A DNA stretch of 63,700 nt, filler included, from an uncultured Methanosarcinales archaeon (GTDB taxonomy: Archaea > Nanobdellota > Nanobdellia > Woesearchaeales > UBA12501): assembly GCA_964397315.1 (NCBI GenBank). It is 4 parts of 4 records of this genome, joined end to end, with 100 filler letters (N's around TTAATTAATTAA, not from the genome) between each part and the next. Parts side by side here need not be neighbours in the genome. Positions count along the whole stretch, not along the records: positions 1 to 19,335 come from CAYNHV010000024.1; 3 more parts are not named here. One strand, written 5' to 3'. Below, one piece after another: positions 12,001 through 18,000 of the stretch. Made by a program: the position numbers. Position 1 is the stretch's first letter; each line of letters starts with the position of its first letter.

Positions 12001-15000
12001 GAGATCCTCTATGACAAGCTCCTCTTCCTCAATATGCTCTATCCTTGTTCTCCTTTCATCGCCGTACTTCTCCCTGAGCTCTGACAGCTCCTGCTTTATT
12101 ATGTCAAGTATCTTCTGCTCTGATGCCAGAATGGACTTCAGCTCATCAATCAGCTGGACGAGATCCTTGTGCTCCTTCTTTATCTTTTCCCGCTCCAGGG
12201 AGGAAAGCTTCTGGAGCTTCATGTCCAGTATGGCCTTTGCCTGAGCTTCTGTAAGCTCGTAATTCCCCATGAGCATCTTCTGCGCGTCATCAACAGATGA
12301 GGATTCCTTTATTCTCCTCACGACCTCGTCTATGTTGTCCAGCGCAACTATGAGGCCCTCCAGGATGTGGGCCCTCTCCCTAGCTTTCCTGAGGCCAAAT
12401 TCTGTCCTCTTCCTCACGACATCCTTCCTGTGCTTTAAATGCTCCTCAAGAAGCTGCTTCAGGTTGAGCGTCTTCGGCTCGTTGTCAACAAGCGCCAGCA
12501 TTATTGCCCCGAATGTGGTGGTCATTCTTGTGTAAGCATAAAGCTGGTTGAGCACTATGTTTGCCGTGGCATCCCTCTTTATCTCTATAACAACCCTTAT
12601 GCTCTCTCTGGCTGACTCATCCCTTATGTCCCTTATTCCCTTTATCCTCTTGTCCTTGACATAGTTGGCTATCTCCTCTATGAGCAGGGCCTTGTTGACC
12701 TGATATGGTATCTCTGTTATTATTATCCTTTCCCGGTCATTCTCCTTCTGGATCTCTGCCTTTGCCCTCACTGTTATCCTGCCCCTGCCGGTGAGGTAGC
12801 ATTCCTTTATACCGTTCGTGCCGGCTATGATTCCTGAAGTCGGGAAATCAGGGCCCTTTATTGTCTGCATCAGCTCCTCAACTGTTATTTCAGGATTGTC
12901 TATCAACGAGATTATTCCGTCTGCAACCTCCCTCAGGTTGTGGGGAGGTATGTTTGTTGCCATTCCGACAGCAATTCCGGAGCTTCCGTTTATGAGAAGA
13001 TTGGGAACTTTTGCAGGCAGCACCAGAGGCTCCTTGAGACTTCCGTCAAAATTAGGCGCGAAACCTATTGTCTCCTTGTCAATGTCCTGCAGCATCTCCT
13101 CCGAGATTCTCCTCAGCCTGCACTCTGTATATCTCATTGCAGCGGCAGAATCCCCGTCAACACTGCCGAAGTTGCCGTGGCCGTTTATCAGGGGGTACCT
13201 CATTGAGAAATCCTGCGCCATTCTCACAAGCGAGTCATAGACAGCCACATCCCCATGAGGATGGTACTTACCAAGAACCTCTCCCACAATCCTCGCGCAT
13301 TTCTTGAAAGGCTTGTTATGGAACATTCCCATGTCATGCATGGCATAGAGTATTCTCCTGTGTACTGGCTTGAGGCCGTCCCTTGCGTCAGGCAGGGCCC
13401 TGCCCACTATGACTGACATGGCATAATCAAGGTAGGATCGCTTCATCTCCTCCTCAATCAGCTGGTTGTTCACCCTTGCTGCGCTTTTCTCTTCTGGCGT
13501 GTCTTGCCCGCTCATTTTGCAATTGGAAAATAATCATGTTTCTTTATAAATCTTTTGTTTGTAAAAACCCCTTTAGAGGCTCTGAAAAGCCTTAATTCAG
13601 GCGTTTCAGATGCATTCAATAAGTCCTGAAGAATCATTATCATGAGCGCCGCACTGTCCCATGTCAGTTTTGTTCGCTCACTATGTTGTCCTTTGCCTTA
13701 AAGCTGTGGCCGCAGTAAACACAAGCCTTTCTCTTGGCTCCGAGGATGCCTGTCCTTCCCTCATATCTCATCTTTTTCTTGCATCTCGGGCACTGCAGAA
13801 GCATCATCCTCACTCACCCTCTTTTTCCTCGCCTTTCTCTCCGGGATACTCCTCACTCTCTTCTTTTTCTTTGTCCTTTTCTTTATCCCCCCCATTATCA
13901 AGCCCTGCGAATTCCTCAAGCTCTTTTGATATCCTTCCCTTCCCTTTCTCCTGCTCTTCCCCCTGTTTTTCATCTGTCTCGCGCGGGGCCTCCTCAGCCT
14001 CACCGGGATATTCCTCTGCCTGTCCGCTTTCTGCCCCTTCTTCTTTCTCTTCCATCAGGTCATCAAATGAAGGCCCTTTGTTTTCCTCCCTTTCATCTTC
14101 TGCTTCGGCTTCCTCCACCCCCTCTTCAGCATACTCTTCCACATCCTCTTTCTTCTCTTCAGGCTTCTCGTAGACCTCAAGCTGGCCCAGCTTTTTTGTT
14201 TCCATCATATCCTCTGCTTTCTCTATCTCTTTCTCCTTTTCCCTGCTGCTCTGGTATTCCTCTTCAGTGTAGGTTTCCAGCTTTCCTGATTCGCTGCCGC
14301 CCTCCGCGCCTTTTGGCGTTTGCTGAGCGGATTCATCAATCCTCTTCTGTTCCTCAGTGTCTGCCCCCATCTCCCTGCGCTTTTCAATATCAGCTGACTC
14401 CACCCCTGAGAAGAGCTCCTTTACTGACTCCTTGTCAGGAAGGTCAAAATAATCAAAGAATCTTGTTGACAGCCTGAGTATGTAGCTCCTGCCCTGCTTG
14501 ACTTTTGTTATGAAGCCCATCTCCACGAGCTCTTTTATGTGCTCGTATGCAGTGCTTCCCCTTATCTTCACCACATCAGACTGGTAGACTGGATGCTTCC
14601 ATGCGATTATTGCCAGCGTCTCAAGAAGCGCCTTGTTCAGCTCGGTGTGGGGGGCGACGTCCTTGACAAGGCCGAGGTATCTCTCTTTTACAGTCATCTT
14701 CCAGCCGTCGCCCTCCCCTATGAGGAAGATGGGAGAATCTGACTTGTTGTAATCATCCTTCAGCTCATTAAGGGCTGCCTGTATCTTCTTCCTGTCATCC
14801 TCCCTGCACAGCTTCTCTATCTCCTCAAAGCTTACTTTCCTTCCTGCTGCAAAGAGTATGGCCTCTATTTCCTTTTTTAGCTTTTCACCCTCTTTTTCCT
14901 GGCCTGTTTGGTCTGTCATTTCTTTTTCAGCCCTTTCTTTATAGAATATTTATCCTTCTTCTTTTCTATCCATCCCTCTCTTATTAATTTTTCCAAAAAA

Positions 15001-18000
15001 GGGCTTAGCTGTTCCGGGGGAATGCCCGTGTTTTTTGAGATATCTTCAGCGCTTTTTTCCTTTTCCTTCAGGCTGAGCAGTATGTTGTTCCTCAGGAGCA
15101 GGCCGGCGTTCCTCTCAAGGTTTTTTGACTTGGCTTTAAGGCCCTTTATGTGAGCGTCAAGCTTGTGCAGCCTGGCCATCATGTCGTTGAAGAATGAGGC
15201 GAAGTCCTGGGCATTATAGTGGAACTTCTCAGGCTCTATTATCTCTATTGACGAGGGCATGTAGTCAAAGCAGAAGAATGCCAGCTCTGATGCGTCCTTC
15301 ACCATCATCTCCAGCTCAACAAAGGTCGTGTACAGCTTGTCCTGTTTTTTCGGCCTTGCATAATCCTCCCTCAGCAATGTTATGTTCGGGTTCTGCTTGA
15401 GCTTGTCCACGTACAGCTTGAGGGTTTTTGAAAGGTAATCCTTTGGGGCCCCCATCATCTCCACTATAGCAGTGCACCTGATCTGCCCCTTCTCAAGCTT
15501 TTCTGATATGAGCGCCCTCTTGTCATTGTCCGGCTTTTTCTTTGGCCTTTGTCCTGCCGCGCCTGCCGGCTTTTTTGCTTTTCCTGTTTTCTTTTTTGCC
15601 ATGTCCAAAAGAATAAGAGAGGTCTTTTTAAAGCTTTTGGGTGGCTTTCCCCCTCTTTTGGGACCTCTTAAGGCGGAATGCCAGTATCATTATAGCGACT
15701 GCCATTGCTCCTATGATGAAGTATACTGCAAGCCCTTCTGCCCTGCTGGAGGATGACCTGTATATCACTTTTCCTGTAAGGCTGTTTTCCCCTCCAGGAG
15801 TGTTGTTTCCTGTGCTGTTTCTCCTGCTGAGCATTGATTCCACTCCCTTGTCAATGCTGCTGTTAATGGCAGAGGGGGTGGAAATTGGTTCTGGAGCTGA
15901 GATATGCACATCATCTCTCAGGTCTTTTGTTGTCTTCTGGCTGTCCTTTCTTATCTTCACCTTGAACTTGTAATCTCCCGGCTCTGCTCTTGTAACAATG
16001 TTCTTGAGCTCCACTTCTGCTGTCTCTCCCGGATCAAGCCTTATTGTTTTTTTGTTCTCCTCTCTTTCTCCTGAATAGCACTTGCTTCCCCTGTAGACAT
16101 AGCTCCACACTTCAAAGGTGTGGCTTTTGCCGTCGTTGCTTATGCTTACTGCTGTGGAGAACTCACTTCCTATTGTGATGTTCCTCTTAAATTCACTTAT
16201 CTCGTATGACAGCCTTGGTTCCTTCTCCAGAGGCTGGTTGGGGCATAGCGATGAGACAATCCCCTCAACAACCACCTCCCTCTTGTCAGTCATGTTCAGC
16301 CCTTCCACAACAAAGGTGTAGCTTCCGCCATCATATTCCCTGTCGCAGTTGTTCTTTATCTGAACAGGAACTGTAAGGTCATACTCCCTGAACTTCTCAT
16401 AGAGTGTCATCTTTGAGATGCTGCTTATCCTCTCTCCGCTGTCAAGGTCCTCTATCCATGCCTCCACAACACTTGACCTCTCATCCCCCTTGTAGATTAG
16501 AAGCCTGGCCCTCAGCTGCTTTCCGAACTCAATGTAATCATCACTGCCGAGATAAAGCTTCTTTATATTGATTGATGATTCCTGCGGCTTCTTAACACCT
16601 ATCACGGTTATGAGGCTTTCTGACTCCATCTTCAGTGGTTCACTGCTGCAGTTCGCGTAAAGGACGGCCCTGACGAGAAATGACTTGTCCTCTTCATCAA
16701 TCTTCGGAGTCCATGATTTTGTGTTGGTGTTTGTTGTGTTATACTTTGCCTTGACTATGTTGCCCCCCAGGGTTTCCACCCAGTACTCTATTATGAAATC
16801 CTCAGTGCCTTCTGCATCAAGGTATATGCTCACCTTCTCGCTGTTGTTGTAGAGCCCCTTGTCTGTGTGGACTGAAAATTCAATTCCGCAGACTGTAGTG
16901 TTTGTTGTGTTTATCGAGCTGTTTGATGAGGTATTTATAGTGCTGTTTATGCTGCTGTTTGTTGTCTCGTTTTTCAGGACATTCTCTTTTTCTGCCGTGT
17001 TCATCCTTCCAGGTGTGCCTCCCTCCTCAACGCTCTCCAGCCATTCCCCTTCAACAAGCTCCATTGACTTCCCGTTTCCATTAGCTATTGAGCCGTCATA
17101 ACTGGCTGACGCAACCAGTGCATTGCTCGTGTTGTAGAGGAATATCTCATCAGCTGTGTTGTCCAGGTCATTCCCTATGGTTGCGCCAGCAGAATACACT
17201 GATGCGTTTGTTATGGAATAATCAAATCCCTCCTCTGTTATGAGGGCGTATGAGGAGTTCGCGCATCTCAGGCAGGCGAGGGTGTCGTTGGACTCAGAGT
17301 CAGCTATGACCCATCCCGAGAGATTGGCCGGATTTGTGGTGAATATCTCTATGAACTCCCTGTCATAATCATAGCCATCAGGGTTATACATTATCTCGTT
17401 GATCCTTGCCCCTGCAGCAGGCAATGCAAGAGATGTTGCAAGCGATGCTGCAAGGACAAGGAAAAGCAAAAACCTTGGCATCATCTCTTTTTTCATGAGA
17501 AATTCATGGCTTGTTTTTTTAATAACAGTTTTCCTTCGCAAACCGAAAATGTTCCTGCGCGGGCTGAAAAGATTATGGAGTCCAGGTGAATCAGGCAGAA
17601 GATTTCCGGAATTGCCTATGCAGCTGATTGTTTTGCAAAATATTAATAAACGAAAGTGCCTATAGATTCTGCATGACATCAAAAAATAGCAGGAAGGTTG
17701 TTGTCAACGACATGATGCAGAAGAACTATGCCTATTATCTTACAGAGCCTGCTGGAAGGAATTTTGATCCTGAGTTCAGGCCAGAATTAAGCCCTAAAGA
17801 GATGCTTAAGCTGGGGGTTTTCGGAGGGAAGTACATGACAGACTGCAGGAAGGAATTCCCAAAATCATGGTTCAGCAGGGTAAAGCTCTGCCATGAGAAG
17901 CATGATCCAAAGCTGAATTATTTCAAGGTCAATGCATCCCAGCCATTGTCTGTATGGAGGAGGAAGGGCTGGATTCACAAGGATGATCCTCGCGGATGGT

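Follow-up and report, generated by a model that had tools for sequence, protein, structure and literature searches.

What a protein of the MJ0538 family does directly ahead of scpB, a position usually held by the kleisin gene scpA, is the question raised by this locus of an uncultured archaeon of the Woesearchaeales. The window, which is the whole stretch of DNA that was analysed, comprised 63,700 nucleotides. The following features were located around the two genes.

11071-13515, minus strand: gyrA, conserved downstream neighbour (Pfam)
13543-13550, minus strand: TATA box TTTATAAA, 27 nt 5' of the gyrA ATG (read from sequence)
13664-13813, minus strand: zinc-ribbon ORF, 49 aa, CPRC...CVYC, abutting or overlapping the scpB stop; third gene of the unit
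13810-14919, minus strand: scpB (g01167), 369 aa (PF04079 and TIGR00281)
14916-14919, minus strand: ATGA stop/start overlap of g01168 and scpB (sequence)
14916-15602, minus strand: g01168, MJ0538-family (PF27325) long form, 228 aa, pI 9.7, ATG at 15602
15625-15640, minus strand: promoter-like element before g01168 (read from sequence)
15628-17682, minus strand: gene for an LTD-domain (PF00932) surface protein, conserved upstream neighbour (Pfam, sequence)

The g01168-scpB unit and its putative promoter

The preliminary description had overlapped the two genes by 4 nt, and its coordinates were exact in the sequence, with the scpB ATG at 14919-14917 and the g01168 TGA at 14918-14916. The zinc-ribbon ORF matched no family in the Pfam search and was located directly 3' of scpB in 63 of 80 public loci (tblastn, E<1e-3). 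The promoter-like element before g01168 consisted of a BRE-like ccaaaag (15640-15634) and a TATA box TTTAAAAA (15632-15625). It ended 22 nt 5' of the g01168 ATG and extended over the LTD stop codon. A BRE/TATA element was present 22-23 nt ahead of the MJ0538-gene ATG in 13 of 13 sequences inspected (the window and 12 loci), and 57 of 80 loci had a loose TATA heptamer in the preceding 160 nt, compared to 13.8% of background windows. No palindromic operator was apparent in the 13 promoter regions. From the known archaeal TATA-to-start distance, we infer a leaderless start of g01168. The three genes probably form a leaderless operon in the order g01168, scpB and zinc-ribbon ORF, in which g01168 and scpB would be co-transcribed. 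The TATA box ahead of gyrA suggested that this gene may have a promoter of its own; in 52 of the 80 loci, gyrA followed in the same orientation. The LTD gene preceded the MJ0538 gene, also co-oriented, in 41 of the 80, and its product showed a signal peptide, N-glycosylation-type sequons and a C-terminal membrane anchor.

Judged by its sequence, g01167 is a bona fide ScpB. PF04079 was matched with E 5e-38 and 130.6 bits (aa 17-166, model positions 2-157 of 160), and TIGR00281 scored 116 bits (cut-off 89.2). The two-winged-helix core (aa 17-166) corresponded to 14422-14871 of the window and was followed, from about aa 176 to 369, by an acidic tail with 74 D/E in 194 aa. A canonical ScpA of 268 aa, with N- and C-terminal PF02616 matches, was encoded on another contig of the genome, and a canonical SMC was likewise encoded apart from this locus.

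Domain build of g01168 and its likeness to known proteins

The AlphaFold2 model of g01168 (pLDDT 91.2, pTM 0.70) reproduced the secondary-structure elements described earlier. The previous count of 151 homologues was obtained again at E<=1e-3, and PF27325.1 was the precomputed Pfam label of g01168 and of all 120 homologues listed. Two homologues, P0013 and P0117, were labelled bacterial in their source records, probably through a binning error. The chain was divided as follows.

15528-15602, minus strand: Lys-rich disordered N-terminal tail, aa 1-25 (pLDDT 58-64)
15234-15527, minus strand: family core part 1, helix 26-37 and ferredoxin-like beta-alpha-beta-beta-alpha-beta, aa 41-123
15072-15212, minus strand: 47-residue helix, aa 131-177 (AlphaFold2 model)
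14940-15050, minus strand: C-terminal winged helix-turn-helix, aa 185-221 (model and sub-threshold Pfam)

The tail contained 10 K/R and 1 D/E. Basic tails of at least 20 aa were found in 37 of 267 family proteins, and some relatives had H1-like lysine tails. The core carried the near-invariant motif FCFDYMPSSIEIIEP at aa 110-124, with the signature CF(D/E)YMPSSIEI followed by an LNDLxxxLHxxD helix. P116, S118, E120, P124, D140 and H146 were invariant in alignment A1, and the motif and helix were common to long forms and sister-order short forms (alignments A1 and A3). When modelled separately, the N-domain gave the same beta-alpha-beta-beta-alpha-beta fold with pLDDT 95.5. It gave no Pfam match at E<=1 in any of 39 members, and its fold matches were generic (S6, ACT, Lrp/AsnC RAM and NikR-C, Z <=8.1). 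Z values of 7.2-7.7 were obtained to ACT (2ko1, 6lxg) and Lrp/AsnC RAM (8q90, 2ia0) domains; since ribosomal protein S6 (Z 8.1) scored as high as ACT, these values indicated only a common fold.

In the long helix, an unbroken series of hydrophobic a/d positions with 3-4 spacing was read from F134 to L176 (13 positions). This suggested a coiled coil through which g01168 may dimerise. The first ~30 residues of the helix belonged to the family core, and short forms ended after about 30 (alignment A3). The winged helix was composed of H185-192, H196-208, E212-215 and E218-221 in the model, as a three-helix bundle with a beta-hairpin wing. It resembled SmtB/HpaR/HlyU-type domains in VIA-align (Z 10-11, rmsd 0.9-1.5 Å, about 60 aa), with Z 10.7 and 0.9 Å over 61 aa to SmtB (1r1t) and Z 11.2 and 1.5 Å over 60 aa to HpaR (7el2). 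The best Pfam match was TrmB (PF01978) at aa 178-219, with E 2.7e-5 and 24.4 bits against 25.6; HTH_27 gave 22.1 against 22.2 and HTH_5 gave 21.4 against 22. As all of them were just below the gathering threshold, the winged-helix fold class was supported and no family could be assigned. The recognition helix was not basic on its exposed face (PEQLSPFLEKLIRE), though the module is basic overall (pI 9.7), so that the winged helix is only a putative DNA-binding domain. A whole-chain Foldseek search of the PDB found no structure at E<=1e-3; the best rows were PF0095, CodY and CRP, and those of PF0095 and CRP had been reported before.

Lrp/AsnC (FFRP) and NikR-type regulators resembled g01168 as small dimeric proteins in which a ferredoxin-like (RAM/ACT-like) domain for oligomerisation or ligand binding is joined to a DNA-binding domain. 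The Z values of 7-7.7 between the N-domain and Lrp/AsnC RAM or NikR-C were within the range of chance fold sharing, and the sequence search with g01168 gave no PF01037 or PF13291 match. The domain order is reversed in these proteins, whereas the winged helix of g01168 is C-terminal behind the 47-residue zipper, and the MJ0538 core also exists alone, without a DNA-binding domain. In TrmB and TrmBL2, a winged helix is likewise joined to a dimerising helix, in an archaeal chromatin context; TrmBL2 stalls SMC-ScpAB in T. kodakarensis (PMC11840125). However, the winged helix of TrmB is N-terminal and its sensor domain is unrelated. In the sister orders, PAS-plus-winged-helix regulators (L136, L137) followed the same plan of sensor, helix and winged helix. 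Their C-terminal linker helix and winged helix matched profile positions about 145-196 with E 2e-7 to 3e-6, and they were the closest relatives that the winged-helix module had outside the family. Their N-terminal domain, however, is PAS (PF00989) and not MJ0538, and their genes do not adjoin scpB. Kite proteins (ScpB, MukE, Nse1/3) have tandem winged helices, whereas g01168 has only one. The hhalign probability of 15.7% over 54 columns between the g01168 family and ScpB alignment A2 reflected a generic winged-helix likeness.

Pairing with scpB and winged-helix gain in Woesearchaeales

Conservation within the order was investigated by profile searches for MJ0538 and ScpB in 61 genomes, one per family. 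MJ0538 was matched in 58 of 61 and ScpB in 55, and both were present in 55. The ScpB match began 0-150 nt downstream of MJ0538 in the same orientation in 48 of these 55 genomes, and in 52 the distance was at most 1 kb, which bore out the earlier claim that the pair is kept in the order. A second set of 80 loci from public genomes gave a similar result, with a co-oriented scpB downstream in 73 and at most 150 nt away in 69. An overlap-giving start codon was available in 44 of the 80, and an overlap of exactly 4 nt was possible in 23. Conservation of the genes 2-3.6 kb upstream was low (1 and 15 of the 80 loci). This decay of synteny just outside the cluster meant that the pairing exceeded background gene order, and it supported g01168 and scpB as a tight, selected co-expression unit. 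Across the phylum, all but one of 101 high-quality genomes (100) had an MJ0538 match, nearly always as a single copy. Within the Woesearchaeales, SMC, ScpA, ScpB and MJ0538 were all near-universal, so presence/absence patterns carried no signal. One genome (G028) had a short form without the winged helix that nevertheless overlapped scpB, which indicated that the MJ0538 core, and not the DNA-binding module alone, takes part in the scpB link.

A different arrangement was observed in the sister orders. The homologue was short (131-179 aa) and without the winged helix in 21 of 21 sampled genomes. The family had been described as DNA-binding; the winged helix supported this for the long form, but not family-wide. 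MJ0538 was adjacent to scpB in none of 20 genomes, the two being 13-101 kb apart or on different contigs, and scpB was located after aRF1 or scpA. In L126-L128, three divergent genomes from within the class, scpA was directly ahead of scpB. Immediately upstream of the short form, often overlapping it, was an LTD gene in 6 of 20 loci; an S_layer_C protein adjoined it in 3 of 20, and Hjc was at most two genes upstream in 6 of 20. The genome of M. jannaschii, whose MJ0538 gave the family its name, showed no ScpB match in a control scan. The scpB link is thus a feature of one order and not of the MJ0538 family. Three changes coincided in the Woesearchaeales: the order-specific gain of the winged helix, the coupling to scpB, and an acidic ScpB tail of ~150 aa (median ScpB length 325 aa, compared to 177 aa in sister orders). 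The pairing arose once, and its persistence may partly reflect the difficulty of separating coupled genes.

Possible roles of g01168

We read g01168 as a dimeric DNA-binding protein that is co-produced with ScpB and acts with it on the chromosome. This reading is tentative, and we consider it possible but not yet probable; the evidence for it comprised only gene order and fold class. The ancestral part would be the MJ0538 core, in which a zipper helix follows an ACT/RAM-like alpha/beta domain; this small, presumably housekeeping protein occurs in almost all genomes of the phylum. In the Woesearchaeales, the zipper was lengthened and the winged helix-turn-helix added, with a lysine-rich tail in some members. 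A parallel coiled-coil dimer could present two winged helices to DNA. Translation of scpB would be coupled to the g01168 message so that both proteins are made together, and g01168 would most likely contact ScpB and hold it, and via ScpB also SMC-ScpA, at DNA. A partnership with condensin had been proposed before; the co-expression unit and the dimeric winged-helix build agreed with it, but the link was limited to one order.

The further proposal of an SMC loader like ParB found no support. Whether g01168 is taken as kleisin-like, replacing or duplicating ScpA and docking on the SMC neck and head, or as a ParB-like site-marking loader, we regard such a role as very improbable. It occupies the place of scpA, as in bacteria and in L126-L128, and it is near ScpA in length, with a C-terminal winged helix as in kleisins. 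However, hhalign of A1 against the ScpA of the same genome gave a probability of 0.2%, Pfam gave no PF02616 match, the N-terminal part is alpha/beta in place of the helical SMC-neck-binding domain, and the canonical ScpA is present on another contig. The likeness to ParB was confined to the proposed job, a dimeric DNA-binding protein bringing SMC to DNA; a ParB/Srx-like N-terminal CTPase domain, a ParB-type HTH or another nucleotide-binding domain was not found in Pfam or NCBIfam. A loader of either type was therefore disfavoured. An ordinary one-component-type regulator was considered unlikely, though much less so. Here the MJ0538 module would serve sensing or oligomerisation, and the winged helix behind the linker helix would bind an operator; as the first gene behind its own promoter, g01168 would control scpB, the zinc-ribbon gene and possibly itself without touching ScpB. 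Many regulators have this build, the best whole-chain Foldseek rows and the ArsR/SmtB/MarR-type winged helix (Z 10-11) agree with it, and the PAS-plus-winged-helix relatives (PF00989 in 2 of 3 of the closest module matches) keep it alive. Nevertheless, the single MJ0538 copy must also supply the core function of short forms that have no DNA-binding domain, and the family is near-universal (58/61) in very small genomes. The missing palindrome, the coupling in G028 and the non-specific DNA contact suggested by H1-like tails also counted against a regulator.

It was also doubtful that the core has a housekeeping function unrelated to condensin (e.g. a surface-protein or cell-division role), its position before scpB being an accident frozen by coupling and its winged helix tethering another function to DNA or binding protein. 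The sister-order surroundings (LTD, S_layer_C and Hjc genes, no pairing with scpB), the LTD neighbour retained in 41 of 80 Woesearchaeales loci and the M. jannaschii genome were in line with this explanation. However, the g01168 promoter overlaps the end of the LTD gene, so the two are not simply co-transcribed. The coupling to scpB was also much stricter (69-73 of 80) than the LTD neighbourhood, and the coincident gain of the ScpB tail suggested that the MJ0538 gene and scpB evolved together.

Action of g01168 together with ScpB was made less certain by the sister-order core, which is unlinked to scpB and follows surface-protein genes, and by M. jannaschii, which has MJ0538 but gave no ScpB match. 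The recognition helix, the PAS-linked relatives of the module, the single origin of the pairing and the uninformative presence/absence patterns weakened it further. In its favour were the 4-nt overlap, the retention of the pair relative to its flanks, the conserved BRE/TATA element and the separate TATA box of gyrA. Because MJ0538 is near-universal and almost always single-copy, the long form must also carry the core function, which would be unusual for an ordinary sensor regulator. The three coincident changes, the G028 overlap, the pI of 9.7, the lysine tails of relatives and the heptad series pointed in the same direction. In this order of tiny uncultured archaea, g01168 is thus a testable candidate partner of ScpB, so far from gene order alone. 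The literature on ScpB was consistent with such a partner: of six archaeal ScpA-ScpB pairs tested, none showed binding, and the role of archaeal ScpB was called open (PMC7055376), yet deletion of scpB phenocopied deletion of smc in T. kodakarensis (PMC11840125).

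Gene order and transcription of the MJ0538-scpB pair

The preliminary description had placed g01168, the gene of an MJ0538-family (PF27325) protein, directly before scpB, and this arrangement was borne out. Both genes run on the minus strand, with a common ATGA in which the stop codon of g01168 overlaps the start codon of scpB. The source genome comprises 1.47 Mb in 61 contigs, with an estimated completeness of 93%. Its contig C24 covers window positions 1-19335 only. Positions 19336-63700 are off the contig of the finding, so no gene past 19335 is a neighbour of the operon. The genes are given below in the order in which they are read.

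15628-17682, (-), LTD-domain surface protein, upstream of g01168
14916-15602, (-), g01168, 228 aa
13810-14919, (-), scpB, 369 aa
13664-13813, (-), zinc-ribbon ORF, 49 aa, CPRC...CVYC, directly 3' of scpB
11071-13515, (-), gyrA, downstream of the zinc-ribbon ORF

The zinc-ribbon ORF, which belongs to no Pfam family, probably completes the operon as its third gene, and its product is another candidate partner. The gene following gyrA was not gyrB; an ORF of 740 aa without a Pfam match was found there (8512-10734, (-)). A ParA/MinD-type P-loop ATPase (PF10609/PF01656) was encoded on the same contig at 950-1696 (-), about 13 kb from the operon.

Directly before g01168, we found ccaaaag-c-TTTAAAAA at 15640-15625, with 22 nt from its end to the ATG. 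A box of the form TTTAAAAA, TTTATAAA or TTTTTAAA was present at a spacing of 22-23 nt in the window and in all 12 further loci inspected, preceded in each case by an A-rich or AAC element. Within the 160 nt upstream of the gene, a loose TATA heptamer occurred in 57 of 80 public loci, compared with 13.8% of other 160-nt windows, a contrast that is inflated because the background is mostly coding sequence. Archaeal transcripts start about 26 nt downstream of the centre of the TATA box, which would place the 5' end of the message on the ATG of g01168 or right beside it, so that the transcript may be leaderless. A separate TTTATAAA lies 27 nt before the ATG of gyrA. Together, the two boxes suggested a transcription unit of three genes, namely g01168, scpB and the zinc-ribbon ORF. 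A scan for bacterial-type promoters and terminators gave counts at the level of shuffled sequence. The sequencing runs listed for the locus were three DNA runs, all from one study.

Conservation of the pair was examined in a sample of the order (61 genomes, one per family, source genome included). The MJ0538-family profile matched 58 of the 61 genomes and PF04079 matched 55, and an MJ0538 gene was present in all 55 genomes with ScpB. Downstream of the MJ0538 gene and in the same orientation, the ScpB match began after 0-150 nt in 48 of these 55 and within 1 kb in 52; in the genomes G033, G036 and G040, the two genes were on separate contigs. Three genomes had the MJ0538 gene only. The match was at a contig end in one of them (G035) and fragmentary in another (G044). 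A second set consisted of 80 loci from public genomes, every record being of Woesearchaeota type. In this set, scpB was downstream on the same strand in 73 loci, at a distance of at most 150 nt in 69. A start codon overlapping the upstream gene was available in 44 of the 80, with an overlap of exactly 4 nt in 23. The opposite strand carried scpB in two loci, and the flank held no scpB in five, three of which were shortened by a contig end. The zinc-ribbon ORF followed scpB in 63 loci, gyrA followed in the same orientation in 52, and the LTD gene was upstream in 41. The window genes 2-3.6 kb upstream recurred in just 1 and 15 loci of this set, which indicated that gene order is otherwise poorly kept. 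The pairing described earlier for the order was thus confirmed, and the gene-order signal is real and strong. It traces to a single evolutionary event, however, and translationally coupled genes are hard to separate.

Structure of g01168 and distribution of the MJ0538 family

The AlphaFold2 model of g01168, made with 36 homologues as input, reproduced the fold reported before (pLDDT 91.2, pTM 0.70). The predicted parts were as follows.

aa 1-25, lysine-rich disordered tail
aa 26-37, helix
aa 41-123, beta-alpha-beta-beta-alpha-beta domain
aa 131-177, single long helix
aa 185-221, winged helix

Foldseek gave nothing at E<=1e-3 for the whole model, as in the preliminary description, and nothing for the N-domain. 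The N-domain modelled by itself reached a pLDDT of 95.5. It resembled only the common ferredoxin-like fold of ribosomal protein S6, ACT, Lrp/AsnC RAM and NikR-C, with VIA-align Z values of 7-8.1, a level typical of chance fold sharing. For the whole model, VIA-align gave only generic winged-helix matches; ScpA, ScpB and ParB were absent among the fold matches listed. The sequence-profile search of the PDB returned no match with E below 0.1, the ESM Atlas search returned PF27325 clusters only, and no Pfam model matched the N-domain in any of 39 members. The winged helix superposed on SmtB, HpaR and HlyU with Z of 10-11 and rmsd of 0.9-1.5 A, and scored slightly below the threshold for TrmB, HTH_27 and ArsR.

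The long helix shows an unbroken a/d series (F134, F138, M141, L145, L148, I152, L155, S159, L162, A166, L169, N173, L176), which in sequence terms is the signature of a predicted coiled coil. Core position 159 is Asn in most homologues (consensus AEN). The protein is basic (pI 9.7) whereas ScpB is acidic (pI 4.5). A basic N-terminal tail of at least 20 aa was found in 37 of the 267 family proteins in hand, about one in seven. Three long-form homologues (P0051, P0062 and P0093) carried H1-like lysine-rich N-terminal tails of 40-95 aa. The tail of P0051 is 95 aa of lysine/serine, of the histone-H1 type.

The family was then compared across 101 high-quality genomes of the phylum, of which 21 belong to other orders of the class. 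The MJ0538 profile and PF04079 each matched 100 of the 101, so co-occurrence within the phylum is uninformative. In all 21 genomes from other orders, the homologue ended about 30 residues into the helix (ORF of 131-179 aa), and the winged helix was absent. The MJ0538 gene adjoined scpB in none of the 20 ScpB-bearing genomes of these orders; the two were on separate contigs or 13-101 kb apart. This contrast between the sister orders and Woesearchaeales indicated a joint origin, in Woesearchaeales, of three features: the added winged helix, the coupling of the gene to scpB, and the acidic ScpB tail. Within the order, the genome G028 encodes a protein of the short form, 153 aa in length, and its gene nevertheless overlaps scpB, by 17 nt; the coupling is therefore independent of the winged helix. 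PF27325 in Nanoarchaeota consists of a universal short core with a winged-helix extension in one order, and the long form combines domains in a way that is new for this catalogued family. The earlier interpretation was supported in part: the co-expression with ScpB is real, and the role as partner or loader is a candidate one. "DNA-binding" applied to the long form of Woesearchaeales and not to the family as a whole.

In sister orders, the gene upstream of the short form, often overlapping it, encoded an LTD surface protein in 6 of the 20 loci, and Hjc was at most two genes upstream in 6 of 20. The LTD-preceded loci of sister orders were L094, L096, L097, L098, L102 and L103, with Hjc often one gene further upstream. 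The LTD protein is membrane-anchored (lamin-tail-domain), with many N-glycosylation-type sequons, and its gene precedes the MJ0538 gene in Woesearchaeales and sister orders. The LTD/MJ0538 neighbourhood predates the coupling to scpB. The short-form loci that diverge most, three in number, had a large protein with an S_layer_C match as neighbour (L107 4512-6914, L108 1253-3853, L110 1080-3791). When family members outside the phylum were sought, the most divergent short form as query gave three close relatives, and public-genome contigs scanned with the pattern CF[DE]YMPSS gave Woesearchaeota-type loci only. Fused forms, sought as proteins of 400-2000 aa with the MJ0538 domain, were not found, a weak negative. 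The literature search returned no paper on MJ0538/PF27325 or on ScpB in Woesearchaeota.

ScpB, condensin and the possible roles of g01168

The source genome has a single SMC (contig C1, 1178 aa), a single ScpB and one canonical ScpA (contig C8, 268 aa, beside eIF6 and prefoldin). SMC and ScpA are unlinked to each other and to the MJ0538-scpB pair. Of the 61 genomes of the order, 56 had a match to the SMC hinge, in no case beside the pair. Since SMC hinge, ScpB and MJ0538 are each near-universal in this sample, presence/absence patterns are uninformative. Over aa 17-166, the ScpB of the source genome is of the canonical type (PF04079 E 5e-38; TIGR00281 116 bits, cut-off 89.2). Beyond this core lies an acidic tail, 74 of whose 194 residues are D/E (aa ~176-369, window 13813-14394 (-)). 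The median ScpB length was 325 aa in Woesearchaeales (n=35) versus 177 aa in sister orders (n=19). The Woesearchaeales tail is 35% D+E, and sister-order ScpB stops just past the two winged helices.

In the excerpted text of Jeon et al. 2020 (PMC7055376), six archaeal ScpA/ScpB pairs showed no binding in vitro, the bacterial ScpB-binding segment was missing from archaeal ScpA, scpB was missing in most Methanococcales, and the function of archaeal ScpB homologues was left open. According to passages of Yamaura et al. 2025 (PMC11840125), scpB deletion in T. kodakarensis had the same effect as deletion of smc or scpA, and scpB was required for SMC-dependent domain boundaries. The same passages describe positioning of the SMC complex by the winged-helix protein TrmBL2 and suggest a ternary complex on unpublished data. 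The excerpt of a preprint (10.1101/2024.01.07.573240) describes kite paralogues and no partner of the g01168 kind.

We tentatively read g01168 as a DNA-binding dimer that may work with ScpB on the chromosome, and rate this a little short of an even chance; direct binding to ScpB would make up about half of it. Two observations stand against an ScpB partner: the core is unlinked to scpB elsewhere, and M. jannaschii, the name-giver of the family, gave no ScpB match in the control scan. The core might have an unrelated housekeeping role with a purely historical link to scpB, which we consider rather doubtful. A role of g01168 as the regulator of its operon also seemed rather unlikely. The weak secondary matches of the MJ0538 profile were PAS-plus-winged-helix proteins of sister orders, so the added module looks like that of ordinary sensor regulators. 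Against a plain regulator, it counts that each genome has only one copy, which also has to fulfil the function of the stand-alone core, and that the gene is near-universal in minimal genomes. In addition, G028 retains the coupling without the winged helix, and no palindromic operator was seen by eye in 13 aligned promoter regions.

As a kleisin, g01168 was rejected, with an hhalign probability of 0.2% against ScpA of the source genome and the wrong N-terminal fold. It shares only a generic winged-helix likeness with ScpB (hhalign 15.7%), and unlike ParB it has no ParB-type domain. A kleisin-like or ParB-like loader is highly improbable. We know of no archaeal SMC loading factor.

The DNA-binding dimer can be taken further. 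In Woesearchaeales, the "orphan" ScpB of archaea might have its missing physical partner in the long MJ0538 protein, which would then be a DNA anchor or loading factor for SMC; we regard this as unlikely. A coiled-coil dimer would hold its winged helices and lysine tail on DNA and would also bind ScpB, perhaps via the lineage-specific acidic tail. The archaeal SMC complex would gain an anchor or loading factor unrelated to ParB. In a bolder variant, the protein would also touch the membrane-anchored LTD protein encoded upstream, at the cytoplasmic tail of the latter, and tie the chromosome to the envelope, which fits the gene order of surface LTD protein, MJ0538 and ScpB. A complex prediction with two ScpB (aa 1-172) and two g01168 (aa 24-228), using separate alignments and no control runs, gave a score of 0.00, and the tool returned no verdict; this outcome speaks neither for nor against a complex.

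Its translational coupling to scpB throughout the order makes the MJ0538 protein a concrete candidate for a partner of archaeal ScpB. For PF27325, the analysis provides a first outline of structure and evolution. If the link were only regulatory or historical, the result would be a modest annotation.

Neighbourhoods of scpB in other orders

In other orders, scpB was found after aRF1, or after scpA in three divergent genomes of the class. The latter show the bacterial-type scpA-scpB order (L126 3522-4295, L127 2193-2939, L128 3437-4099), and a Cdc48-type AAA ATPase gene precedes scpA-scpB in two of them. In several sister-order genomes, the aRF1 upstream of scpB was intein-bearing, with Intein_splicing, Hint or LAGLIDADG matches inside the eRF1 domains, at the following loci.

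L114, 185-2041, intein-bearing aRF1
L120, 71-2035, intein-bearing aRF1
L123, 4232-5719, intein-bearing aRF1
L124, 3494-4981, intein-bearing aRF1
L125, 1365-2855, intein-bearing aRF1
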